The notes below the pieces were generated by a model. That model was not told where the DNA came from. It saw nothing but the letters and a program-made list of their open reading frames with translations, and ran no database searches. Source: an uncultured Alphaproteobacteria bacterium (lineage in GTDB: Bacteria > Pseudomonadota > Alphaproteobacteria > CAAHEQ01 > UBA3637). From it: DNA of 64,000 nucleotides. Below, piece by piece: positions 9,886 through 61,029 of this stretch. Where the stretch lies: the NCBI GenBank assembly GCA_944391565.1, contig CALXUB010000019.1, forward strand, positions 6,919 through 70,918, written 5' to 3'. The position numbers and the translations under genes are program-made. Position 1 is the stretch's first letter; each line of letters starts with the position of its first letter.

Positions 9886-10335
9886 TTATTCGAAATAAAC
9901 ACTATACTCGACCGTTTCAAACGGCGAAGTGGCATAATCTATCAGATAACCTGTTAAAGCCAATACAATCGGCAACAACAGAAAATAAGCAAAATATCTG
10001 GCCCGAATGACAAAAGGCTGAAGACACAAGGCCACAATCCATAATACGCTAACAGGCAAAAGCAGAAAGCCTATAACAACAAAGAAAACAGTTTTAAAAA
10101 TCATAACAGTTTCCAAACTGCCCCCCATTGCCACTGCAATGAAAACCAGAACGATCCCCCACATCGCCCACATAAAAATCGTTTCAGGCAAGTTGCGTTT
10201 TGTCCGCGGCATCCACGCCGATGATTTTTCAGGAATAGCCAGCAACTGCTGTTTTTGTTCTTCAAACTCCGCCGTTGTAATAATCTTTTTTTTATGCAGA
10301 TTCGCCAATTTTTCCAATTCATCAAATCTGTTCAT
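9886..10335 (-). CDS. membrane protein with N-terminal SHOCT-like motif
   Basis: Track ORF 9886..10374. The start at 10335 makes an ATGA overlap with the pyrH stop. The motif KKKIITTAEFEEQKQQLL is followed by 3-4 transmembrane helices. Confidence 0.5.
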   Translation of the reverse strand: MNRFDELEKLANLHKKKIITTAEFEEQKQQLLAIPEKSSAWMPRTKRNLPETIFMWAMWGIVLVFIAVAMGGSLETVMIFKTVFFVVIGFLLLPVSVLWIVALCLQPFVIRARYFAYFLLLPIVLALTGYLIDYATSPFETVEYSVYFE

Positions 10336-11051
10336 GACATGTCCTCCATCACGGTAAATGTTCCTCGACCGCAAACAATTTCTTTCAAAGCACCGGAACC
10401 TTGTTTAAACACAACGACGGGCAAATGATTACTTTCGGCCAAACTCATCGCCGTTAAATCCATAACACCCAATTTTTGGGCCAGTGCCTCTTCATAAGAA
10501 ACCTTTTCATAGCGCTTTGCATCGGCATATTTCCGTGGATCCTTATCATAAATACCGTCAACCTGTGTTGATTTAAAGAAAGCATCGCACTTCATTTCGC
10601 TGGCCCTTAAAGCCGCGCAGGTATCGGTTGTAAAAAACGGACTGCCCGTTCCTGCCGCAAAAATCACCACGGCACCCTTCGACAAGGCTGCCAAAGCCCG
10701 CGGACGGTTAAAAACTTCTCCGACGCCTTCAATTGCCAGCGCCGTAAAAATCCGAGTCGGCACCCCGATTTCTTCCAATGTTTCGGCCAAAGCCAATGCA
10801 TTCATCACCGTCGCCAGCATGCCGATATAATCACCTGTCACCCGATCGAATCCCTTGAGCGCGCCTTGCGCACCGCGAAAGAAATTACCGCCGCCAACCA
10901 CCAAACATAGCTCGACCCCCAAGGCTCGAACGACTTTGATTTCATTGGCAAGACGGCGGAGCTTTTCCCGATCCAATGCTTCTGTATCGGTCATCAGCCC
11001 CTCGCCGGATATTTTCAACAAAATACGTCGATACTGGGGGTCGTCTGTCAT
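10332..11051 (-). CDS. pyrH: UMP kinase PyrH
   Basis: 239 aa with YRRILLKISGE, typical of UMP kinase. Confidence 0.9.
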   Translation of the reverse strand: MTDDPQYRRILLKISGEGLMTDTEALDREKLRRLANEIKVVRALGVELCLVVGGGNFFRGAQGALKGFDRVTGDYIGMLATVMNALALAETLEEIGVPTRIFTALAIEGVGEVFNRPRALAALSKGAVVIFAAGTGSPFFTTDTCAALRASEMKCDAFFKSTQVDGIYDKDPRKYADAKRYEKVSYEEALAQKLGVMDLTAMSLAESNHLPVVVFKQGSGALKEIVCGRGTFTVMEDMS

Positions 11052-13190: not shown

Positions 13191-14084
13191 ATGGTTAAGA
13201 TTTTGGAAGAAACAAAAGGCTTAAAAAAAGTTCAAAATGACGACGGTACCGTTGAGCAGTTTTCTTATGAAGTGAAAAACGGCGTGCGTGAATTGACACA
13301 ACACAACTCCTACGGACGCGACGGAGGAATCACGACAGAAAGGGTTTTCAAAAACGGACGGCAGGTTTCTCAGGCCAATTACGGTCGAACAACCGATGGA
13401 ACACCTGTTTTACGTTCAACAACGCTTTACGACGCCAAAGGCAACTCGCGGACGGTAATGAATCCGAATTACGCCGCGGCAACAACGGAAAAATCAACGC
13501 CCCTTGTCGAGGCTGAAGTCTCCCCCAAGGCACATCCTGTCCGCACCGTCCATACTGATAAATTCGGCCGCAAAGAAAGCACGGATCATTTTGATGCGGA
13601 CGGCAAGTTGCTTTACACGGACTTTTTTAAATATAATCTGGATGAATCGCATCCTTATGAAATGTTGCGCATCATGCCGGAAAAAGATGGTAAAAAAGTC
13701 GTCGAGACCTATGCCGCTGACGATAAAGCATTTTATCGTGTCAAAGCCCAAACGTTTGTGAACGGTGAAAAAATCCATTCTACTCACTACGATCCCAAGA
13801 CACAGGCACGAACTAAAGAGCATCTGTTTGCCCGACTGCCTAATCCGGATCATCCGACTGAACAAGGGTTTCAACTGATGACGGAACGGCTTTTTGACAA
13901 AACCGGCTCCAAGGTAATCGGCACACGCAAATTGGTTAACATCAGCGGTCATTTCACCGAAAGAACGCCGCAAATCGATAAAGCGTTAAAGCTGCCCTCC
14001 GGACTGCGAGAAACGCTGATGCAGAGTCAACGGATGCAGTTTATTAAAGGCTTGATTTCAAAAGTATTTGGAAAAACGGCTTAG
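13191..14084 (+). CDS. hypothetical protein (297 aa, no signal peptide)
   Basis: Long ORF with a GGAAGGAG RBS 7 nt upstream. Antisense-oriented relative to its neighbours. I recognised no family. Confidence 0.5.
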   Translation: MVKILEETKGLKKVQNDDGTVEQFSYEVKNGVRELTQHNSYGRDGGITTERVFKNGRQVSQANYGRTTDGTPVLRSTTLYDAKGNSRTVMNPNYAAATTEKSTPLVEAEVSPKAHPVRTVHTDKFGRKESTDHFDADGKLLYTDFFKYNLDESHPYEMLRIMPEKDGKKVVETYAADDKAFYRVKAQTFVNGEKIHSTHYDPKTQARTKEHLFARLPNPDHPTEQGFQLMTERLFDKTGSKVIGTRKLVNISGHFTERTPQIDKALKLPSGLRETLMQSQRMQFIKGLISKVFGKTA

Positions 14085-17512: not shown

Positions 17513-17573
17513 TTTTTCCTTCTGTTTTCGGAACGGCATTATAGCGGATTTCTCCGCCGATAGCAAGGCCGAT

Positions 17574-18299
17574 TTATTTTTTCATTTGACAATAGCCCGT
17601 TCCGTCCCGACGCACGCACAAGCGACAAGCATTGGGTTCTTCCGGCACCTCTCCCGCAAAGCACATATTGCACTCTTCGGAAATATTCTGTGTCATCAAA
17701 GTCGTCGGACAAACACCCCGGCAGACGCCGTTTTCCCAGCGGGTCATATAAGAGCAGGCTTGACATTCGTCTTTCGTAAAGCTTTGAAAGTTATCTGAAG
17801 CTCCTTCACACGGGACACAATCCATATATTTGCTGCGCACGGGCATATCTTCGGGACAATCTTTTAAAACACAGACAGCTTTTTTCTCACCGGCTTGATT
17901 TTCATATTCGGCCATTTTACGATTCGGACACCGAGCGCATTCTTCGGGCGTACTGAAAGCAGCTGCCTCCGTTTCGCAGGCCGTGCACACTCCGAAATCA
18001 GACAAAGGCGTTTCCGACGGACAGTCTTTTAAACCGCAAAACCCTTTACCGTTGATATTCCCACGCAAAACGCGATTGGGACATTTGGCACATTCTTCGG
18101 CTGTCGTCACATAAACCATCGGCGTATCACACGCGACACAGGTATTTAACGGACAATTTCCGGACGTCACAAAATACAGCTTTCCTTCGTATCCGCACAA
18201 GCGAGAGACTTTCATCGGCCGATCTGCCGAACACACCGGTTCTTTTGCACCGGCGCCCACAGCTAAAAACAAAAATAAAAGAACCCAAATTTTCTTCAT
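17574..18299 (-). CDS. secreted cysteine-rich repeat protein (CxxC...ECAKCPNR repeats), paralog A
   Basis: 241 aa with the signal peptide MKKIWVLLFLFLAVGAGA. Carries about 30 Cys in repeated CxxC-x(11-13)-C(A/T)(K/R)CPNR units. The start overlaps the lolD stop (ATGA). Confidence 0.6.
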   Translation of the reverse strand: MKKIWVLLFLFLAVGAGAKEPVCSADRPMKVSRLCGYEGKLYFVTSGNCPLNTCVACDTPMVYVTTAEECAKCPNRVLRGNINGKGFCGLKDCPSETPLSDFGVCTACETEAAAFSTPEECARCPNRKMAEYENQAGEKKAVCVLKDCPEDMPVRSKYMDCVPCEGASDNFQSFTKDECQACSYMTRWENGVCRGVCPTTLMTQNISEECNMCFAGEVPEEPNACRLCVRRDGTGYCQMKK

Positions 18300-18979
18300 G
18301 CTTCCTCCACTAACACGCCGTTTTGCAAACTGACACGACGATCCATTTGAGCGGCCAGGTCCGGATTATGTGTCGCAATCAAGGCAGATAATCCCGTTTC
18401 CCGCACCATGTTTAACAACGCCATAAACACTTTTTCGGACGTTTTGGGATCCAAATTGCCGGTCGGTTCATCCGCCAACAGCAACTGCGGTTCATTTACC
18501 AGTGCACGCGCAATGGCAACCCGTTGTTGTTCCCCGCCGGACAATTCTCCGGGCCGATGCTTTGCCCGCGATTTCAATCCCATTTTATCCAACAACTGCA
18601 GCGCTTTTTCTTTTGCTCGAGCAGGACGAGTTCCACCAATCAGCTGAGGCATCATGACGTTTTCAAGAGCGGAAAAATCCGGCAAAAGCAAATGACTTTG
18701 ATACACAAAGCCCAAATATTGACGACGCATCAGGGTGCGTTCTTTTTCTTTCATAGACGCACATGAACGTCCGGCCAGGAACAAAGAACCGCTGCTCGGT
18801 TGATCCAGCAGTCCCGTCACATACAACAGAGTAGATTTACCCGAACCGGACGGCCCTACCAGGGCGACAATCTCGCCTTTATGAATTTCCAAATCCACGC
18901 CTTTAAGGACATGAAGCCGCTTATCCCCGTCACCGAACCAGCGTTTAATCTGTTGTAGTTTTAATACCGTTTCCGTCAT
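18296..18979 (-). CDS. lolD: lipoprotein-releasing system ATP-binding protein LolD
   Basis: Track ORF 18296..19003. The start at 18979 makes an ATGA overlap with the upstream Cys-rich gene. Walker A (GPSGSGKST), the ABC signature (LSGGEQQRVAIARAL), and the partner lolC/E upstream. Confidence 0.8.
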   Translation of the reverse strand: MTETVLKLQQIKRWFGDGDKRLHVLKGVDLEIHKGEIVALVGPSGSGKSTLLYVTGLLDQPSSGSLFLAGRSCASMKEKERTLMRRQYLGFVYQSHLLLPDFSALENVMMPQLIGGTRPARAKEKALQLLDKMGLKSRAKHRPGELSGGEQQRVAIARALVNEPQLLLADEPTGNLDPKTSEKVFMALLNMVRETGLSALIATHNPDLAAQMDRRVSLQNGVLVEEA

Positions 18980-19488
18980 TCTTGCTTTTCCTTTAAAAGA
19001 CAAACCCCATTTTCAAAATACCGGTTGGGACATGTCGCACATGCAACAGCCGTCACCTCCACATGTGTTAAATCCTCGCCGATACAGGGATAACAATAGC
19101 CATATATGCTTTGCAGCGGTTTTGTTTCGGGACAGACTTTCAAAGCGCACATAGCGTGTTTCATTTCTCGGTTCGGACATTTCGCGCATTCCTCGGCAGA
19201 AGCTTCAATCGGAAAATCTCGTCCGCAGCCATAGCAAAAACCGCTTCTATCCTGCATCGGTTGATCTACGGGACAAGATTTAACGGCACATCGACCGAAT
19301 GCATTGATTTCACGATTCGGACACTTGGCACATTCCATGAATGTTGTGTCGAACGCATAAGGATTATCGCACGCATAGCACCATCCGCTTTTATCTTGCA
19401 GCGGTTTTTCCGGTGGGCAAGCTTTTCGATCCAAATCCGCCCAAGCCGGTAATGCGATAAGGCACAGTAAAATCACGATTTTTTTCAT
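18976..19488 (-). CDS. secreted cysteine-rich repeat protein, paralog B
   Basis: 170 aa with the signal peptide MKKIVILLCLIALPAWA. The same ECAKCPNR / CxxC repeat architecture as 17574..18299. Confidence 0.6.
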   Translation of the reverse strand: MKKIVILLCLIALPAWADLDRKACPPEKPLQDKSGWCYACDNPYAFDTTFMECAKCPNREINAFGRCAVKSCPVDQPMQDRSGFCYGCGRDFPIEASAEECAKCPNREMKHAMCALKVCPETKPLQSIYGYCYPCIGEDLTHVEVTAVACATCPNRYFENGVCLLKEKQE

Positions 19489-19497
19489 CAGAGATTC

Positions 19498-20736
19498 CTA
19501 TTCATACCTAAGCGCTTCCACGGGATCGGTTTTGGAGGCTTTATAAGACGGATACAGCGTGGCCAAAAAAGACAATCCCAAAGCCATTCCTGTCACGGCC
19601 AAAACCTCCATCGGATCTGTTTTACTTGGTAATTGAGATAAGAAATAAATCTCTGCCGAAAACAAATCTTGTCCTGCCAGTCGTCCCAAAAACTGCCGAA
19701 TGGATTCAATATTCAAACAAATTAACAATCCAACACCCAACCCAGCCAGAGTTCCGACAACCCCAACGAATAAACCATCAATTAGAAAAATACCCATAAT
19801 AGAACGTCGACTGGCACCCATTGTTCTTAAAATAGCAATATCTTTACTCTTGTCTTTTACCAGCATAATCAAACCAGAAATAATATTAAATGCTGCCACA
19901 ATAATAATCAGCGTTAAAATTAAAAACATCACATTGCGTTCCACCTCTATCGCGTTAAAAAAAGCAGAGTTTGCGTGTTTCCAATCCACCAAGGTCAGTG
20001 ACGGAGGCAGTTTTTCCTGAACATCCTGCATGATATAAGGCAGCTGATCTATTTGATTGACGAACAACTCGATTTGAGAGATTTTACCGTCGTTCATCAA
20101 ATATTTTTGCGCTTCGGTCATGGGCATAAAAATAAAGTTCGCATCATACTCATACATACCGGTGTCAAAGGTTCCGACAATTTTATAAGACTTCATACGC
20201 GGCATGGTTCCAAAAGCGGTCACATTTCCATTCGGAGAAATCAGATTCAGCTTGTCCCCGGGCAGAACGCCCATTTTCATGGCCAAGCGATAACCGACAA
20301 TAATAGAGGCCTCTTTGAAGTCGTCTAAACGACCTTCGAACCGATCAGTCAGCAATGCCCTGTTTTTAAAATCCTCAGGCCGAATACCGCGCAACAAAGC
20401 CCCTTGTGCATGCGCTTCGCTGGCAACCATGACTTGACCTTCCAAAACCGGCATAACGGCCGTCATACCTTGAACTTTCTGAAGACGATCCAACATCTCG
20501 GAATCCATCGCCAAAGTCGGCCCCCAGGCAGGATAAACGGCCATATGTCCGTTGATACCCAAGATACGCCCCATCAGCTCGTCCCGAAAGCCGTTCATAA
20601 CGCTCATGACAACAATCAGCGTGGCAACCCCCAGCATAATGCCCAAAAAAGAAAAACCGGCAATAACGGAAACAAATCCCGTACGCTTACGGCTTCTCAG
20701 ATACCTTAACCCGATTTTGCGTTCAAATAAAGCCAT
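19498..20736 (-). CDS. lolC: lipoprotein-releasing system permease LolC/LolE family
   Basis: 412 aa with the FtsX-like permease topology and MacB-like periplasmic domain. Lies 9 nt upstream of the Cys-rich paralog B and lolD. Confidence 0.75.
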   Translation of the reverse strand: MALFERKIGLRYLRSRKRTGFVSVIAGFSFLGIMLGVATLIVVMSVMNGFRDELMGRILGINGHMAVYPAWGPTLAMDSEMLDRLQKVQGMTAVMPVLEGQVMVASEAHAQGALLRGIRPEDFKNRALLTDRFEGRLDDFKEASIIVGYRLAMKMGVLPGDKLNLISPNGNVTAFGTMPRMKSYKIVGTFDTGMYEYDANFIFMPMTEAQKYLMNDGKISQIELFVNQIDQLPYIMQDVQEKLPPSLTLVDWKHANSAFFNAIEVERNVMFLILTLIIIVAAFNIISGLIMLVKDKSKDIAILRTMGASRRSIMGIFLIDGLFVGVVGTLAGLGVGLLICLNIESIRQFLGRLAGQDLFSAEIYFLSQLPSKTDPMEVLAVTGMALGLSFLATLYPSYKASKTDPVEALRYE

Positions 20737-20887
20737 ATGTGATACTTTCGTTCTGTTTTTCCTGTTTTCAATCTATGCGTTTTTTCTGTAAATGACAAGA
20801 ATAAAATAAAGAAAAAGCATCATAGTTTGATGTTTGTTTAATCAAATTTTATTACTGACAAAAAGAAATGAACAATAATCTCTTGCT

Positions 20888-21673
20888 TTACCATTTACCG
20901 GAGGCACCGCCGCCGCCGAAGTTTCCACCTCCGCCATGGAAACCTCCACCACCAAAGCTTCCACCGCCGTGAGAACCATGATTATTCCAGAAATCATCAT
21001 CTTTAAACCGATTACGTCGAGATTTTTTTTCTGAAGAATCTGTTTTAGACGGGTTAATTTTATTAGCATAGTAAATTAAAATACCCATCACGATAAAAAA
21101 GCCAAAAAACAAAAAAGGCTCAAAAGGACTTTCTTCTATTTTTAAGTTATTTATAAGACCAGAAGCCGAAGAAACCACTTTTCCGTTTTTTAAAGAAATT
21201 GACTTTTTACTGTTTAATACAGATAAAATTCCGTCAACTCCTTTTAAAATACCGGCATTCATATCTCCTTTTTTAAACTCAGGAATAATCATATTCTGAA
21301 TAATCATTGATGAAAAAGCATCTGTTAAAATGGACTCTCGACCATATCCCACCTCAATACGAACCAATCGTTCATTCGGTGCGACTAACAATAGGACACC
21401 ATCGTCTTTATCTTTATCTCCGATTCCCCAATAACGTCCTAATTGATATCCATATTCCTCTATCGACAACCCCTCCAAAGAAGGAACTGTCACAACAACA
21501 ATTTGTTCAGATGCCGGCAAAATCTGATGTATCTGATTAACCGTCTCAGGCGTTAAAATATGTGCAGCATCAACAACTTGTCCTGTTAATTTCGGAAAAC
21601 TCACGGCATATGAGGCTGTCCCGAAAAAGAGCGTCGCCACAAAAGCAAGACAGAAACAAAACTTTTTTATCAT
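20888..21673 (-). CDS. TPM-domain (YgcG/TLP18.3-like) protein with Gly-rich C-terminal tail
   Basis: 261 aa with a signal peptide. TPM phosphatase-like domain (…VVVTVPSLEGLSIEEY…). C-terminal GGGSFGGGGFHGGGGNFGGGG tail. Coupled to LemA upstream. Confidence 0.65.
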   Translation of the reverse strand: MIKKFCFCLAFVATLFFGTASYAVSFPKLTGQVVDAAHILTPETVNQIHQILPASEQIVVVTVPSLEGLSIEEYGYQLGRYWGIGDKDKDDGVLLLVAPNERLVRIEVGYGRESILTDAFSSMIIQNMIIPEFKKGDMNAGILKGVDGILSVLNSKKSISLKNGKVVSSASGLINNLKIEESPFEPFLFFGFFIVMGILIYYANKINPSKTDSSEKKSRRNRFKDDDFWNNHGSHGGGSFGGGGFHGGGGNFGGGGASGKW

Positions 21674-54171: not shown

Positions 54172-57100
54172 ATGATTAAAAAAATACTTTTCAGTTTAGT
54201 GACCTTTGGATTGATTTTCAGCAATTCAAATGTTTCCGCACAAGTAAGACCGATGAACATTGCGCAAGCGAATCCCCGAACAATGATATATCATTATGCA
54301 CAAACCGGGAATCTTCAAAATCTGCTTTTATTAAAAAGACAAGGCTATGCCATCGACCTTGTTGATGAAAAAGGCAACAGTGCGTTATGTGAAGCCACCT
54401 GGCGACAGAACCAAACAGCCGTCGATACACTCATTCAAGCCGGCGCGGATACAAACAGCACCTGCATGCAAGAAATCCCGCAATCATATAAAGACGCCGT
54501 CAACATTACTTATATGGACGAACCCATCAACACACTTCGCAAACCCTCTAAGGCCGGCACAATTTGCTCGATCAGCAACAACGGTACACGAACTTGCACG
54601 CCTGTTTTGCAAGACGGCACTGTTGTTGCCGGAACCGACAAAGCCTCTGATCGTGCAGCAGCTGCCTATGTCATCGATCACAGCATCGGAACAACAGCTG
54701 CCGGAACCAATGAAGGCCTCAGCACCGGCGTTAAAATCGGTATCGGCATCGGTGCAATCGCCCTGATCGGCGGCGGTATCGCATTAGCCGTCGGTGGTGG
54801 TGGCGGCGGCGGCGGAAAAGGGAACGGTTCAACACCTACCGACCCCACTCATCCTGATAATCCGGACAACCCGGACAATCCCGGCCCCGATAATCCGGAT
54901 AACCCGGACAACCCCGATAACCCGGATAACCCCGATCCTGATAATCCGGATAACCCCGATCCTGATAATCCGGACAAGCCCGACCCTGACAATCCGGACA
55001 AGCCTGATCCTGACAATCCGGATAACCCCGACCCTGACAATCCGGACAAGCCTGATCCTGACAATCCGGATAACCCCGATCCTGATAATCCGGACAAGCC
55101 TGATCCTGATAATCCGGATGAACCAACCAAAATATGCAACGCCGGTGAATTCCTGACTGAAGCGGAAACATGCGAAAAGTGCGGACTGGGATATTACGCC
55201 AAACACGGATCGAACATCTGTACACCGTGCGCAGTCGGCAGCTATGCCAACCAATTAGGTTCCATTGTTTGCACGGCTTGTCCCATCGGTCGAAGCACTT
55301 CCGGGATTGCTTCCACTTCTTGCGACGTTTGCGCGACCGGCTACAAACAACAAGGAGAGTCGTGTCTGCCGTCATGCCGAGCCGGAGAATACTGGGACGG
55401 CAGCATGTGCGCGGCTTGTCCGCAAGGCACCTTCTCTATCGCCGGTGCAACAACTTGCTCGAAATGTCCCGATGGATATACAACGGCAGAAGAAGGCAGT
55501 TCTTACTGCGATGCCTGTCAAGAAGGGTATGTCTGGCTGGACGGATTTTGTGAGCAACAATATGAATTAGATCCCCAAGCTGTTTGTCAGCCCGGGTATC
55601 GACCGAACGATAACGGCGGATGTTCTCCCTGTCCGATTGATTCCTATGGCAGCGACGGCACCAATTGCTATCGTTGCCAAACCGGCTATACGACAAACAA
55701 AACAGGTTCCACCAGTTGCGATATTTGCGAGGAAGGATACTATTCCGACAATGGTGTTTGCCGGCCCCATTGTCAAGCCGGATATTATTGGGATGGCAGC
55801 AACTGTCAAATATGCGCGCCCGGTTCTTACTCCTCTAAAGGCAGTTTAAGTTGTACCGCGTGTTCCAGAAACACTTACCAACCATCAGCCGGTCAATCAA
55901 CATGTATTTCTTGTCCCGTCGGTTCATTGACCGAATCTGCCGGTGCGACAGCCATTGAACAATGCAACACTTGCTATGGCGGTTATATTTTAAAAGATGG
56001 TTCTTGTCAAACCTGTCCGGCCGGATCTTATGCGGACAGCTCATCCAACACCTGTGTTCAATGCCCGATCGGACAATACAGTCCATCTGAGGGACGAAGC
56101 GCTTGTTCTACATGTCCGGAAGGACAGACAACAACCGCCCTCGGATCGACAAGTTGCAGCTGTGACACAGCCAACGGTTATATTGCCGTCGGTGATGAAT
56201 GCCGCCTGAAACAATATTCCTGCGAAGCCGGCAATTATTGGGACGAGACAGAAGGCAGCTGTCAAACTTGTGAAGCTGGAACGTTTTCGGCTTCCGGTGC
56301 GAACTACTGTACCGCCTGCCCATATGGTTATTTCAATGCTTCAGCCGGTGCCGCCGTCTGCCAGGCATGTCCTCAAGGATGGACAACGTCATCCAACGGC
56401 ATGACAAAATGTGATATTTGTGCCGATGGGTGGACCATGGAAAACGGACAATGCGTCACAACCTGCCCGGCCGGACAAGTTTACAACGGTTCGGCGTGTG
56501 AAGCCTGTCCCATCGGCAGCTTTGCACTCAAAGGGGCTTCTTCATGTACCCTCTGTCCGCAAGGCTGGACAACATCCGCGGCCGGCGCCCTCACCTGTGA
56601 CCTCTGTGCGGACGGTTATCAACTGAATTCATCCACCGGCAATTGTGTTCATCAGGATGAAGGCGTTTGTGACGCCGGATGGGCTTGGAACGGGACTGAA
56701 TGTCAACCCTGCCCGGCCGGTGAATATTCCGAAGGAGAAAACTCCCTGTGCCACAAGTGTGCCATCGGGTATTATTCTACACAGGAAGGCAGCACCAGCT
56801 GCACCCGCTGTCCGGTTGGATCTACGACACAGGAAGAAGGTTCTACCAGTGCCTTGCAATGCAACATCTGCGGCATCGGATATTCTTGGTCCGCAAGTGA
56901 AGGAAAATGCGTCACGGAATGTAAGAACGGTATGTTTTGGAACGGATCGACCTGTGAACTTTGCCCGGCCGGAACCTATACCAGAGGCTTAGAAAATAAT
57001 GGCGCTATTCCAACTTCGTGCCAACCTTGTTCCGCCGGCACTTATTCTGCAATAGAAGGCGCCACATGGTGTTCATATTGCCCAAGTCACTCAACCTCTG

Positions 57101-60100
57101 TTGAGGGAGCAACCGACATATCCTTTTGCACTTGCGAAGACGGCTATTATAACACAGATAAAGTAACCGTTAATTGTGTGCCGCATTGTCAAGCCGGTCA
57201 AAGATGGACCGGAACCGAGTGTGTTGACTGTGCGGCAGGGACTTATTCATCCTCCAGCGGGGCAACTGAATGCTACCGATGCTTTTACGGTTCGATTTCC
57301 GAAGCCGGCGCAACCAGCTGTACATCTTGTCCCGAAGGTTTTTCGACTTCTGCCTTAGGATCAGACACTTGCGATATTTGCGCTGCGGGATATGAGGGAG
57401 ACGGCACAACTTGTACAATCTGTTCTGCCGGCACCTATTCGAATGCTTTGACGAATCGCACATGTATGCCTTGCGCGATCGGAACGTATATCAGTACTGA
57501 CGGCGGATCTTCCTGCACGGCTTGTCCGACCGGTTATACAACCGAAACAACAGGCTCCTCCGACGTCGAAGCTTGTCGTATCTGTTCGGAAGGCTACATC
57601 ATGAAAAACGGTAAATGCGTCGCCAACAACAAATCATGTGCCGCCGGTGAATATTGGGCAGGTGATTCCTGTGCTTCCTGCGCTGCGGGAACGTATTCCG
57701 TGGAAGGTTCCATTGCCTGCTTACAGTGCCCGAAAGGTACATATACTTTGGAAAGCGGAAGTCAAAGCTGCACATCCTGTCCCGAAGGATTTACGACCAT
57801 GGGTTTCGGATCCACAACGGCAGACGCTTGCTCAATCTGCGCGGAAGGATATAAGTCCGACGGCGCGGGCGGATGCGTCTTGGCACGGGAAACATGTCCC
57901 AGCGGAGAATACTACAACGGCTTTCAGTGTGTCTCGCTTCCTGAAAACGCCCAAACCGATGCAGATGACATCCGAGGATGGACCTGTGTCAGCGGTTATA
58001 CCCGCGTAGGGGATAACTGTATCTTGACGACAGATTTAAACATTACGACCAATCCGCAAGACACAACATTAACATCAACCATGACGGCAACCCTTTCGAA
58101 TGCCGGATCGGTGCTGGCTGTCAATGACGGCACGATTGAGATTTCCGAAACTGAAGGCAGCTCCAACAGTCTGGTCGGCATGAAAACAACGGGGTTTGGA
58201 TGGGGAAGTTATGAGGCCTATATCGTCAACAACGGCACCATTCAAATGACATCAGAGCAGGCTTCATTGACCGGTATTGACGCCGCTAGCCATTTTGCCG
58301 ATAACAACGGCACCATCCGGTTATCGTCCAACTCGGGCAGTTTAAATGGTATAGTAGCCAAAAAAGGATATAATTACGGCCAAATTGAGTTGACCGGCAG
58401 CAAATCTATTAACGGGATGAGCAGCAACTCTTATAACTCTGAGTTAAAAAATTACGGCTCTATTTTGTTAAACGGAACAAACAGCAATTATCTTTGTGGT
58501 ATCTCTTATAACGATACGAGCGATGTAATGGAGAACTACGGAACCATCCAAATCAATTCTTTTGAAGGAAGTAGTATGAGCGGTATGTCCGGAGACTTAT
58601 CCGTCAACTATGGCACCATTCGTATTCAAGATTACCAAAACATTTCCACGTCTTCAAGCTACCTGACAACAGGAATGAACGGCGGGAAAAACTATGGAAA
58701 TCTGTTCATAGATGTGCAAAACAGTGAAAAAGAGTATATTGTCAGCGGCATTCATTCCGGACAAAACTACGGAATGATTGACATCTATGCTCGAAATCTG
58801 GAGAAAAACACCCAATTATCCGGAGCGAATGCTTCAACTAATTTCGGAACCATTTCGATTGTCGCGGATCATGTTAAAAGCATCACCGGCATACTAAACG
58901 GCAACAATTATGGAACGATTCGGATGAACACTTCCGACACATCGACGGTCACCGGATTGAATATACAAAACAACGGAATGATAGAAATAATTGCATCCGG
59001 CGCGACAAATGTCTACGGTGTCTATAGTCCCTCTTTTTATGATACTCATAATAACGGCATGATCAAGGTGACATCCATTGGAAAAGAGACAAACACCACT
59101 GCCGGTTTGTACAACACAAAAAACTACGGTGACGTTTATGTCAGCGGATCCGGACAATATTTGTATGGTTCCAAGGGAATATCTGCTTCCAATTACGGAA
59201 ACATCACACTGACCGGCTCTGCCGATTATGTTTACGGAATGGATGGCTATTATAACAGCGGCACGATCCGTATCGATGCCTCCAAAACATCTTATGTTGT
59301 CGGCATGAAGCCAAGCACTATTTCCACGAATGAAGGAAAAATCAGCATCATCAACAGAGGAAATAACGCTGTTTACGGCATCTTGAATTATATTTCGACA
59401 ACAAATGCCGCCGGAGCGGAAATCAATATCGAAAACACCGGAAATGGAACGGCTCACGGCATTTCGGGCGGCTATTCCGTCTATAACGACGGAACAATCC
59501 GAATTACCAATACCGGCAACGGAACAGTCTATGGTATCGACAATGCGACTTCAGTGACGAACAGAGGTCTGATTGAAATTACCAATACCGGCACGGGGCA
59601 AGCCTATGGCATTTATCTGAATGGAGCCGACAAATTCGTTTCCAATGAAGGAACTATCTCCATCAACGGCACTTCCTACACAGGCAACGCACCGTCCGGC
59701 AATTTCATTGTTCTGGAAAACAACGCCAGCTTGGCAACCAGCGGAACATTATCAAGCTCGGGTGCACTGGATTTGAACGCTTTTTCACCGGACGGAACAG
59801 GGCGCATTGCATTGATGCCCAACGGCCGTGTAGAGGGCGAATCTATCTCGGGAGATTTACACATCGACGCATCCAACGTGACGAACGGATTTAAAACCGC
59901 TTACACACTGTCGGATGCCGTCAAGGCCAAAGAAACAAGCAATTTAAACTTAATTTCCGACTCGGCTTTATTTAATGCCGATTTGGCCGACAACGGCGAA
60001 GATGTCATTATGCAAATGAAATCTTTTGACCAAGTGACTGCCAACAAAAGCCTGGCTGATTTTTTGACGGCAAATTATGCGGCTGCCAACAACGAAACAC

Positions 60101-61029
60101 TCTTTAACGAGTTAAAATCAATTGAAACGCAGAAAGCTTTAAGCTCCGCCGTTAAATCCATAACGGGCGCCGAAATCATGACACGGTTCGCCAACGAAGA
60201 TTTAACCGCTATTCGTGATGTCAACCAAACCATGAACAGCCTGATGTTTGCCAATAACGACAAACCGATGTTCGAAGCAACCGGCGCTTTAGACACCTTC
60301 AGCTTTAAAAACAACGATCAATCCTCGGCGCAATATGCGTTAGCCAACAAACGGATCACGCCGCGCCTTAAAATCGGCTATGCCATGAGCAACACGAACA
60401 TGAGCACGGACGATGATCACGACACCACACGGCGAAACAATATCTTCCAAGTTTTCACGCCCGTCAACTATGACCGCTTTGGCTGGCAGTTCATCTCAAC
60501 GCCGCAAATCGGATATGCTCGCGCGCATTATACGCGTCAAGGATGGAACTCCATGTCCTATGACGGTATTTTGGAAAAAAGAATCTTTGCTTTGATGAAC
60601 GAAGCGCGCTACCCCATCGATTTAGGAAAATGGGACGTGTCGCCGACAGTCGAATTGAATGCAATCATCTATAACCAAAGAGGACATGAAGATAAAAAAG
60701 CATTTGCCCTCAGAATACCGTCAGATAACAGTGTCTCCCTGGAAGCCGGTTTGGGTTTCTATCTGCAGCGAAAGTTAGGTGATTTGAATGTTTCCATGGG
60801 GCTGATGCTTTATCGAGAATTTGCCGACCCCTACACCATGAAGGCCGGCATGCAAGAGATGAACGGAACATTTGACTTGTATGATGAAAAATATTCTCCT
60901 TACCGTGGAACAGCCTCTTTCCTTTTCGGCTACGACCTCGGCAGCTTTAATCTGTATGGTTCCCTGAAACACTTTATTGAAAATGACACGCATACCCATT
61001 TGAAAGCAGGTGTGAAATATGCCTTCTGA
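54172..61029 (+). CDS. giant autotransporter-like surface protein with tandem ephrin-receptor-like (GCC2/GCC3-type) cysteine-rich repeats
   Basis: 2285 aa. The layout runs: signal peptide (MIKKILFSLVTFGLIFSNSNVSAQV); an ankyrin-like repeat (GNSALCEATWRQNQTAVDTLIQAGADTN); a Gly-rich hydrophobic stretch; a (PDNPD)n linker; ~900 aa of repeats C-x2-C-x2-G-x-Y-(S/T)-x4-6-C-x2-C; a passenger-like region with NYG repeats; and a ~290-aa C-terminal beta-barrel-like domain ending …LKAGVKYAF. Confidence 0.75.
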   Translation: MIKKILFSLVTFGLIFSNSNVSAQVRPMNIAQANPRTMIYHYAQTGNLQNLLLLKRQGYAIDLVDEKGNSALCEATWRQNQTAVDTLIQAGADTNSTCMQEIPQSYKDAVNITYMDEPINTLRKPSKAGTICSISNNGTRTCTPVLQDGTVVAGTDKASDRAAAAYVIDHSIGTTAAGTNEGLSTGVKIGIGIGAIALIGGGIALAVGGGGGGGGKGNGSTPTDPTHPDNPDNPDNPGPDNPDNPDNPDNPDNPDPDNPDNPDPDNPDKPDPDNPDKPDPDNPDNPDPDNPDKPDPDNPDNPDPDNPDKPDPDNPDEPTKICNAGEFLTEAETCEKCGLGYYAKHGSNICTPCAVGSYANQLGSIVCTACPIGRSTSGIASTSCDVCATGYKQQGESCLPSCRAGEYWDGSMCAACPQGTFSIAGATTCSKCPDGYTTAEEGSSYCDACQEGYVWLDGFCEQQYELDPQAVCQPGYRPNDNGGCSPCPIDSYGSDGTNCYRCQTGYTTNKTGSTSCDICEEGYYSDNGVCRPHCQAGYYWDGSNCQICAPGSYSSKGSLSCTACSRNTYQPSAGQSTCISCPVGSLTESAGATAIEQCNTCYGGYILKDGSCQTCPAGSYADSSSNTCVQCPIGQYSPSEGRSACSTCPEGQTTTALGSTSCSCDTANGYIAVGDECRLKQYSCEAGNYWDETEGSCQTCEAGTFSASGANYCTACPYGYFNASAGAAVCQACPQGWTTSSNGMTKCDICADGWTMENGQCVTTCPAGQVYNGSACEACPIGSFALKGASSCTLCPQGWTTSAAGALTCDLCADGYQLNSSTGNCVHQDEGVCDAGWAWNGTECQPCPAGEYSEGENSLCHKCAIGYYSTQEGSTSCTRCPVGSTTQEEGSTSALQCNICGIGYSWSASEGKCVTECKNGMFWNGSTCELCPAGTYTRGLENNGAIPTSCQPCSAGTYSAIEGATWCSYCPSHSTSVEGATDISFCTCEDGYYNTDKVTVNCVPHCQAGQRWTGTECVDCAAGTYSSSSGATECYRCFYGSISEAGATSCTSCPEGFSTSALGSDTCDICAAGYEGDGTTCTICSAGTYSNALTNRTCMPCAIGTYISTDGGSSCTACPTGYTTETTGSSDVEACRICSEGYIMKNGKCVANNKSCAAGEYWAGDSCASCAAGTYSVEGSIACLQCPKGTYTLESGSQSCTSCPEGFTTMGFGSTTADACSICAEGYKSDGAGGCVLARETCPSGEYYNGFQCVSLPENAQTDADDIRGWTCVSGYTRVGDNCILTTDLNITTNPQDTTLTSTMTATLSNAGSVLAVNDGTIEISETEGSSNSLVGMKTTGFGWGSYEAYIVNNGTIQMTSEQASLTGIDAASHFADNNGTIRLSSNSGSLNGIVAKKGYNYGQIELTGSKSINGMSSNSYNSELKNYGSILLNGTNSNYLCGISYNDTSDVMENYGTIQINSFEGSSMSGMSGDLSVNYGTIRIQDYQNISTSSSYLTTGMNGGKNYGNLFIDVQNSEKEYIVSGIHSGQNYGMIDIYARNLEKNTQLSGANASTNFGTISIVADHVKSITGILNGNNYGTIRMNTSDTSTVTGLNIQNNGMIEIIASGATNVYGVYSPSFYDTHNNGMIKVTSIGKETNTTAGLYNTKNYGDVYVSGSGQYLYGSKGISASNYGNITLTGSADYVYGMDGYYNSGTIRIDASKTSYVVGMKPSTISTNEGKISIINRGNNAVYGILNYISTTNAAGAEINIENTGNGTAHGISGGYSVYNDGTIRITNTGNGTVYGIDNATSVTNRGLIEITNTGTGQAYGIYLNGADKFVSNEGTISINGTSYTGNAPSGNFIVLENNASLATSGTLSSSGALDLNAFSPDGTGRIALMPNGRVEGESISGDLHIDASNVTNGFKTAYTLSDAVKAKETSNLNLISDSALFNADLADNGEDVIMQMKSFDQVTANKSLADFLTANYAAANNETLFNELKSIETQKALSSAVKSITGAEIMTRFANEDLTAIRDVNQTMNSLMFANNDKPMFEATGALDTFSFKNNDQSSAQYALANKRITPRLKIGYAMSNTNMSTDDDHDTTRRNNIFQVFTPVNYDRFGWQFISTPQIGYARAHYTRQGWNSMSYDGILEKRIFALMNEARYPIDLGKWDVSPTVELNAIIYNQRGHEDKKAFALRIPSDNSVSLEAGLGFYLQRKLGDLNVSMGLMLYREFADPYTMKAGMQEMNGTFDLYDEKYSPYRGTASFLFGYDLGSFNLYGSLKHFIENDTHTHLKAGVKYAF
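54837..55125 (+). repeat. tandem ~15-nt DNA repeat (cc(t/c)ga(t/c)aatccggacaa(g/c)) encoding (PDNPD/PDKPD)n linker inside the autotransporter gene
   Basis: About 19 consecutive near-identical units are visible. All three frames remain open across the tract, which produces the overlapping repeat ORFs listed in the track. Confidence 0.8.

Follow-up and report, generated by a model that had tools for sequence, protein, structure and literature searches.

The window analysed here is a stretch of 64,000 nucleotides from an uncultured alphaproteobacterium (contig CALXUB010000019.1), with a G+C content of 45.6%. Its minus strand carries two genes, called A and B, which encode small cysteine-rich proteins and lie within a lipoprotein-release (lol) operon. 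The open reading frame (ORF) list and a reading of the sequence give the order lolCE, B, lolD, A, dnaE, which confirms the arrangement of lolC/E, Cys-rich B, lolD and Cys-rich A described in a first-pass annotation of this DNA. A and B are the smallest members of a large, unannotated extracytoplasmic family. They are probably exported proteins of an envelope or surface family with three disulfides in each module, that were inserted where an essential operon has permissive junctions, and they would stay coupled because the expression of lolD, and formerly of dnaE, runs through them. A Lol accessory role for A and B is unlikely. The insertion into the operon is a curiosity and not a new mechanism; the repeat family, its disulfide map, and its pilin-like and adhesin-like uses are more valuable.

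Proteins A and B and their repeat family

Gene B (18976-19488, minus strand) is an ORF for a putative exported protein of 170 amino acids, with a signal peptide at residues 1-17 and three six-Cys repeats. Its N-terminus reads MKKIVILLCLIALPAWA up to the putative cleavage site and DL after it. Gene A (17574-18299, minus strand) is an ORF for a putative exported paralog of B, with 241 amino acids, a signal peptide at residues 1-18, and 26 cysteines. Its N-terminus reads MKKIWVLLFLFLAVGAGA, followed by KE. Both signals have n-, h-, and c-regions as judged by eye, and both putative cleavage sites are of the small-x-small type (…LPAWA/DL in B and …VGAGA/KE in A). The lipobox pattern [LVI][ASTVI][GAS]C was absent from the signal-peptide end of A and B. 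The signal peptide of A contains no cysteine, and B lacks a lipobox because a leucine precedes its only N-terminal cysteine (ILLC). These features support the earlier description of two paralogous Sec-exported proteins without a lipobox that are tightly coupled into the lol operon.

Mature B contains 18 cysteines, which form three complete six-Cys repeats, all with C-x2-C-P-N-R, as found by regular expression and by a hidden Markov model (HMM) of the repeat. The B unit reads C1-P-x3-P-(L/M)-Q-x4-C2-x2-C3-x12/14-C4-x2-C5-P-N-R-x9/10-C6-x-(L/V)-K. Repeat 1 (residues 24-71; 19276-19419, minus strand) begins CPPEKPLQDKSGWCYAC and continues through ECAKCPNR to CAVK, and repeat 2 (residues 72-118; 19135-19275, same strand) begins CPVDQPMQDRSGFCYGC and continues through ECAKCPNR to CALK. 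Repeat 3 (residues 119-166; 18991-19134, same strand) begins CPETKPLQSIYGYCYPC, and its CATCPNR is followed by CLLK. The 26 cysteines of A are laid out in a partial unit (residues 23-48), two CPNR repeats (49-92 and 93-147), and two degenerate C-terminal repeats (148-196 and 197-241) in which the cysteines are kept and PNR is lost. A and B are paralogs, 36% identical over 195 amino acids (E ~4e-25).

The repeat is about 46 amino acids long, contains six cysteines, and follows the consensus C-P-x-D-K-P-L-x-D-x2-G-x-C-Y-S-C-D-x12-C-x-K-C-P-N-R-x6-C-x-L-K, with the arginine of CPNR present in 92% of units. A word-indexed homolog search gave only five relatives for B and three for A. A profile of the B group run against 1.84 billion cluster representatives (50% identity) matched 540 proteins at E<=1e-3 and 82 at E<=1e-30, and many of the matches are 500-1767 amino acids long. 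The HMM of the single repeat, built from the best matches, counted 994 repeats in 157 proteins and at most 16 in any one of them. This set comprises A and B of the window, the eight word-search homologs, and 147 further profile matches. All named matches come from metagenome-assembled genomes of an uncultured 'Alphaproteobacteria bacterium', and the sole record that states a habitat is a gut metagenome. The host organisms have no cultured model. A six-frame motif scan of the window, together with the HMM on a 2285-amino-acid protein encoded there, gave no other family members.

The profile search thus shows a large family with no curated annotation. No curated Pfam or NCBIfam family covers A or B, and Pfam recognised the repeat in none of the multidomain family proteins examined. 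PDB searches with full-length and single-repeat profiles gave chance-level matches only (a cardiovirus leader, eL37, and a cytochrome c). Literature searches on the repeat motifs (across 8 million papers), on Cys-rich repeats in gut Alphaproteobacteria, and on Lol accessory proteins found nothing relevant. The first-pass annotation had considered that the genes might be widely present with an unrelated and well-established function; they are indeed widespread and mostly unlinked to lol, and no such function is established. The family is apparently undescribed, and with its 540 representatives it looks like a major surface-protein building block in uncultured Alphaproteobacteria, including modular pilin-like proteins. 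In kind, the repeats are rated as belonging with the known bacterial disulfide-rich extracellular repeats.

The larger relatives attach the repeats to other modules, all of which are extracytoplasmic. One protein combines VIT and DUF2135 domains with 14 repeats, another has teneurin-type EGF domains with repeats, and a third, from locus L019, has transmembrane helices, repeats, and a part resembling MORN and the LIC20035 adhesin. Modular type IV pilins have a pilin N-terminus with a grafted functional module, for example PilB and PilC of Streptococcus sanguinis. A similar layout is seen in 37 of the 157 family proteins, including P0009, P0013, P0033, P0042, P0050, and P0100. They start with GRSMVEMLGVLAIIGVLS (…G-R-S-M-V-E-M-L-G-V-L-A-I-I-G-V-L-S…), in which a glutamate at +5 after the glycine is followed by a hydrophobic helix, and continue with a globular part and 5-16 repeats. 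The N-terminus of P0009 aligns weakly with residues 3-107 of the gonococcal type IV pilin PilE (E 0.26), and the pilin models of Pfam and NCBIfam did not match the GRSMVE-type family proteins. These relatives reach 1767 amino acids and are candidate giant modular proteins resembling type IV pilins. A and B differ from them in having ordinary Sec-type signal peptides and no pilin motif. Arrays carried on pilin-like, VIT, EGF, and MORN/adhesin-like relatives would make the repeat a stalk or binding module of the surface or envelope. The likely role of A and B is binding or scaffolding and not lipoprotein release.

All cysteines are invariant in the orthologs of B, at 54-99% identity, and in those of A, at 65-98% identity. 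For both genes the proportion of nonsynonymous differences (pN) is far below that of synonymous differences (pS), and both remain under purifying selection. Together with the 540 family representatives, these observations indicate that A and B are real genes and not chance ORFs. Compared with locus L015, identity is 91% for LolCE, 88% for LolD, and 94% for DnaE, and 75% for B and 66% for A. The nonsynonymous divergence (dN) from L015 is 0.17 for B and 0.22 for A, and 0.04-0.09 for the neighbours LolCE, LolD, and DnaE. Because synonymous divergence (dS) has reached saturation between species, dN/dS can be read qualitatively only; the figure for dnaE of L016, taken from a mis-framed extract, was left out.

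Cysteine co-loss and disulfide pairing

Across the 994 repeats the cysteines are lost in pairs, and these natural variants are the decisive evidence on pairing. Of the 35 junctions between units where C4 is absent, 32 have also lost exactly one cysteine from the stretch between C5 and the following C2; with C4 present, such a one-Cys loss occurs at 8 of 626 (Fisher p 1.6e-43, 23 different proteins). In 30 of these 32, the cysteine that remains is C1 of the following unit, of the CP type, which makes C6 the lost residue. Loss of C2 is accompanied by loss of C1 in seven of eight cases. Among 937 units, C3 and C5 have been lost jointly three times, and only one of the two has been lost three times. 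A short variant, found at 25 junctions, has C6 fused with the next C2, and C1 dropped. The co-loss indicates the putative pairs C1-C2, C3-C5, and C4-C6, and this disulfide map, readable from sequences alone, is testable. Each module of about 46 amino acids would be locked by these three disulfides, and short C6-x-L-K-x-C1 linkers would join one module to the next.

The canonical connectivity of the tumour necrosis factor receptor (TNFR) cysteine-rich domain, composed of A1 and B2 modules, is 1-2, 3-5, 4-6. The connectivity proposed for the repeat would be equal to it, and the two also share a six-Cys unit of about 40-48 amino acids that is arranged in tandem extracytoplasmic arrays. In TNFR, C4 directly follows C3 and is widely separated from C5, whereas the spacing here is C-x12-C-x2-C-x12-C-x2-C-x9-C, and A and B are bacterial. 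No TNFR-type Pfam model matched A or B, and Foldseek gave E values of at least 0.38. The repeat can be called TNFR-like in topology only, since the loop lengths differ and there is no significant match in sequence or fold.

The AlphaFold2 model of B has a predicted local distance difference test score (pLDDT) of 87.9 and a predicted template modelling score (pTM) of 0.71, and shows short hairpins and one-turn helices that are repeated three times. The model of A is poor (pLDDT 48.5) and unusable. A Foldseek search of the B model against the PDB gave nothing significant (best E 0.38, template modelling score <= 0.32). Its best non-significant neighbours are disulfide-rich extracellular rods, namely meckelin, the furin-like Cys-rich region of the insulin receptor, and the TNFR chains CD40 and 4-1BB. 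Ephrin_rec_like (PF07699) likewise consists of CxxC-rich extracellular repeats of about 48 amino acids. Kinship with it was rejected, as a profile-profile comparison by hhalign with the Ephrin_rec_like repeats of the 2285-amino-acid protein of the window gave a probability of 21% over 25 columns, and PF07699 matched neither A nor B.

The first-pass annotation had described the units as periplasmic zinc-ribbon-like or disulfide modules. The disulfide half is favoured by the co-loss of cysteines, and the zinc-ribbon half is not upheld. In the zinc reading, the repeats would be periplasmic metal-binding or thiol-redox-buffering modules whose two CxxC knuckles, 12 residues apart, chelate zinc and serve in metal or redox stress; this is very unlikely. 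The C-x2-C…C-x2-C spacing does resemble that of zinc ribbons such as I-TevI and eL37, and weak sequence matches exist. B matches the Pfam model I-TevI_ZnF (PF22635) with E 1.5e-5 and 25.3 bits, under its gathering score of 27, while A gave no match to it, and a profile matched the eL37 zinc ribbon with E 0.28. The gut habitat implied by some record names might also limit oxidative folding. A Cys4 site of C2-C3-C4-C5 is ruled against by the losses, which pair C4 with C6, C1 with C2, and C3 with C5, a pattern opposite to the prediction. C4 is absent from 45 repeats and C2 from 17, each with the other three of these four cysteines kept, which is incompatible with an obligatory site. Each unit has two conserved cysteines beyond the four of a ribbon, and the six make an always even number. 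The proteins would also be exported, the repeats co-occur with EGF modules, and the nearest folds are disulfide-rich.

The lol operon and its junctions in relatives

All genes of the operon lie on the minus strand. The first is lolCE (19498-20736), which encodes a lipoprotein-release ABC permease of the lolCE/lolF type with 412 amino acids and with the Pfam domains MacB_PCD and FtsX. It matches the NCBIfam equivalog TIGR02212 with E 4.4e-142 and 473.8 bits, exceeding the cut-off of 362.45. It is the sole permease gene in the operon, which suggests a homodimer of the LolF type as in other Alphaproteobacteria, going by the portions of the Lol literature available. The ABC ATPase gene lolD (18296-18979) encodes 227 amino acids counted from the ATG at 18979. 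This start agrees with homologs, and the listed TTG at 19003 is an upstream extension. The protein has an ABC_tran domain, and its best NCBIfam match is TIGR02211 (E 6.3e-82, 274.4 bits, under the cut-off of 307.75); the assignment is supported by its position next to lolCE. In both flanking genes the operon resembles known LolCDE and LolDF operons, as its permease is a genuine lolCE type and its ATPase is LolD-like. The gene for DNA polymerase III alpha, dnaE (14081 to about 17512), was identified from its ORF, from the PHP and DNA_pol3_alpha domains of orthologs, and from the conserved order lolCE-lolD-dnaE.

The genes are tightly packed. An ATGA joins B to lolD (18976-18979), where the B stop TGA at 18976-18978 overlaps the lolD ATG at 18977-18979. 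Another joins lolD to A (18296-18299), where the lolD stop at 18296-18298 overlaps the A ATG at 18297-18299. Both overlaps had been proposed and are read directly in the sequence. The supposed 9-nucleotide overlap of lolCE and B is instead, in the sequence, a 9-nucleotide spacer (19489-19497) that separates the TAG stop of lolCE from the start of B. An AGGA sits at the lolCE stop, just 5' of the B start, and a Shine-Dalgarno GGAGG lies 5-6 nucleotides ahead of the A ATG. The spacer between A and dnaE is about 61 nucleotides long, and in relatives without A, lolD and dnaE are 1-2 nucleotides apart or overlap by 4. This spacer contains a promoter-like site, TTGCTA-17-TATAAT, with a 10/12 match (17538-17566, minus strand). 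In the promoter and terminator scan of the region the number of sites was no higher than in shuffled sequence, so the single match is a lead only and the scan says nothing firm on co-transcription. An Rfam scan of the window gave no RNA element.

The lolCE-lolD and lolD-dnaE junctions were compared across relatives, ordered by the identity of their LolCE to that of the window. At 99-100% (L006-L008) and at 91% (L009-L011, L014, and L015), B occupies the first junction and A the second. At 85% (L012 and L013), the first junction has a B with a lipobox-like LGSC, and the second has nothing, lolD and dnaE being 1 nucleotide apart. At 78% (L004, L016, and L017), B is followed at the second junction by a 111-amino-acid membrane protein. 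At 75% (L018), the first junction has nothing, and the second has a 105-amino-acid membrane protein homologous to the 111-amino-acid one. Nothing is inserted at either junction at 72% (L032, where lolD and dnaE overlap), 71% (L033, where lolCE and lolD overlap and lolD and dnaE abut), and 68% (L020). At 70% (L019), a 409-amino-acid membrane protein with about 2.5 repeats and MORN and then a 197-amino-acid membrane protein fill the first junction, and a 195-amino-acid membrane protein with one repeat and then a 123-amino-acid membrane protein fill the second. At 62% (L021), the first junction has nothing, and the second has a 64-amino-acid gene and a Band_7 gene.

The membrane proteins of 105-111 amino acids that occupy the slot of A (L004 9229-9564; L018 6942-7259) are multi-pass and belong to no known family. 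In P0003, the B ortholog of the 85% lineage (L012 2391-2939), the signal sequence ends MMLGSC/APVC, which is lipobox-like, and the other orthologs lack such an ending. P0003 may be lipid-anchored and hence itself a Lol substrate. The 195-amino-acid gene of L019 (8756-9343) ends …PDPQLAAKTDGHTHLENGALVEEK. This ending duplicates, in diverged form, the C-terminus of LolD (…HNPQLAAKMDRRIHLENGILVEEK) and looks like an insertion scar.

The distribution of the inserts is patchy. The ancestral operon is a compact, overlapping lolCE-lolD-dnaE, and both junctions are insertion hot spots. A is found only in the nearest clade (91-100% LolCE identity) and is a later addition in one sub-clade. B looks dispensable: L018 lacks it, and the relatives nearest to L018 in the sample have it. 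In the favoured explanation, B would have entered the compact operon first, and A would have followed in the sub-clade. Frame-tight coupling would be kept because anything between lolCE and lolD must preserve essential downstream expression. A and B would then be co-expressed with LolDF, but their place of action would be the envelope or the surface, and their work would not depend on lipoprotein release.

The proposal that A and B are Lol-associated periplasmic factors is not supported by the synteny comparison. An alternative of this kind would make B, and perhaps A, a lineage-specific periplasmic partner of LolDF (an adaptor, a regulator, or a dedicated cargo), whose place in the operon ensures stoichiometric co-production. 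This is unlikely, even though A and B are tightly coupled on either side (9-nucleotide spacer and ATGA in the case of B), B holds the same junction in all lineages sampled at 78-100% LolCE identity, both junctions of the independent lineage L019 hold genes with repeats, and the LGSC of P0003 would make that protein a Lol substrate. Co-occurrence of A and B with lolCE-lolD fails, both being absent from L018, L020, L021, L032, and L033. L018 has no B, even though the membrane-protein gene that follows lolD is shared by it and the B-bearing L004 group, the insert-free operon is common (L020, L032, and L033), and unrelated genes (membrane proteins, Band_7) use the same junctions. A and B also evolve 2-6 times faster than LolCE, LolD, and DnaE. 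Outside the clade, the sampled family members lie elsewhere, with P0004 after dut (beside dut and ygjV), P0005 near a dsbA-like gene, and ten metagenome loci not adjacent to lol. Close relatives run the operon without A and B, and the available portions of the Lol literature mention no such partner and no Cys-rich periplasmic component. A more specific form, in which B (with A in the closest clade) is a LolDF-tied periplasmic component, acting as a LolF adaptor or gatekeeper or as co-made cargo, and stems from a new TNFR-like disulfide-repeat family recruited again in L019, is highly improbable.

It is also improbable that A and B are near-neutral remnants of mobile or duplicated repeat cassettes at permissive junctions, kept mainly since their translation now carries the coupling of lolD. 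Different passengers do occupy the same junctions in different lineages, the scar-like copy of the LolD C-terminus lies in the post-lolD gene of L019, A is degenerate at its C-terminus, and the inserts evolve fast. Against this, orthologs as distant as 54% (B) and 65% (A) identity keep all 18 and 26 cysteines, pN falls far short of pS, the signal peptides are intact, and the AlphaFold2 model of B is confident.

Several points weigh against the favoured explanation of A and B as surface-family proteins at permissive junctions. B has held its position between the two lol genes in lineages whose LolCE identity goes as low as 78%, and repeat genes are also present at both junctions of a second lineage, L019. 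Together, these are more than a pure hitch-hiker model predicts, and the recurrence in L019 is the one finding that speaks for a functional tie. The proteins behind the co-loss statistics, on which the disulfide map rests, are in part related to one another, and the sole DsbA-like gene seen is beside the distant family member P0005 in L005. No experimental or structural homolog anchors a function, and the signal peptides were judged by eye. None of the ten independent metagenome loci with ECAKCPNR has a lol neighbour, on contigs that are short (1-8 kb).

The junctions of the essential, coupled lolCE-lolD-dnaE operon can, it appears, repeatedly take up foreign genes for exported proteins with the coupling kept. 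Such insert-tolerant junctions are relevant to operon evolution and to Lol annotation. Lol systems are now antibiotic targets. For annotation, the case warns against inferring function from operon position.

Other features of the window

Another Cys-rich protein is encoded on the plus strand at 54172-61029. This secreted protein of 2285 amino acids has an Ank-like N-terminus, a long low-complexity PDNPD tract, more than eight Ephrin_rec_like and ELAPOR1/TNFR-like Cys repeats, and a long repetitive region rich in Gly and Asn; its C-terminus ends in …KAGVKYAF. It is read as a probable autotransporter-like or outer-membrane-protein-like, eukaryote-like Cys-rich surface protein. Its presence in the window suggests that the organism exports disulfide-rich proteins.

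Locus L006, from a strain with 98.5% nucleotide identity, is collinear with the window from lolCE downstream, and similarity ends exactly upstream of lolCE. There L006 (1-2720) has an ankyrin-repeat gene and the window has TPM-LemA-uvrD, with the boundary at 20727-20900 of the window. In addition, a segment of about 680 bp in L006 (13101-13781) is unmatched to the roughly 460 bp that take the equivalent position in the window (9886-10346).

An ORF of 297 amino acids (13191-14084, plus strand) is convergent with dnaE and has no Pfam match. Its identity in relatives is 99%, 60%, and 40% where that of DnaE is 99%, 93%, and 76%, so that it is conserved and fast-evolving.

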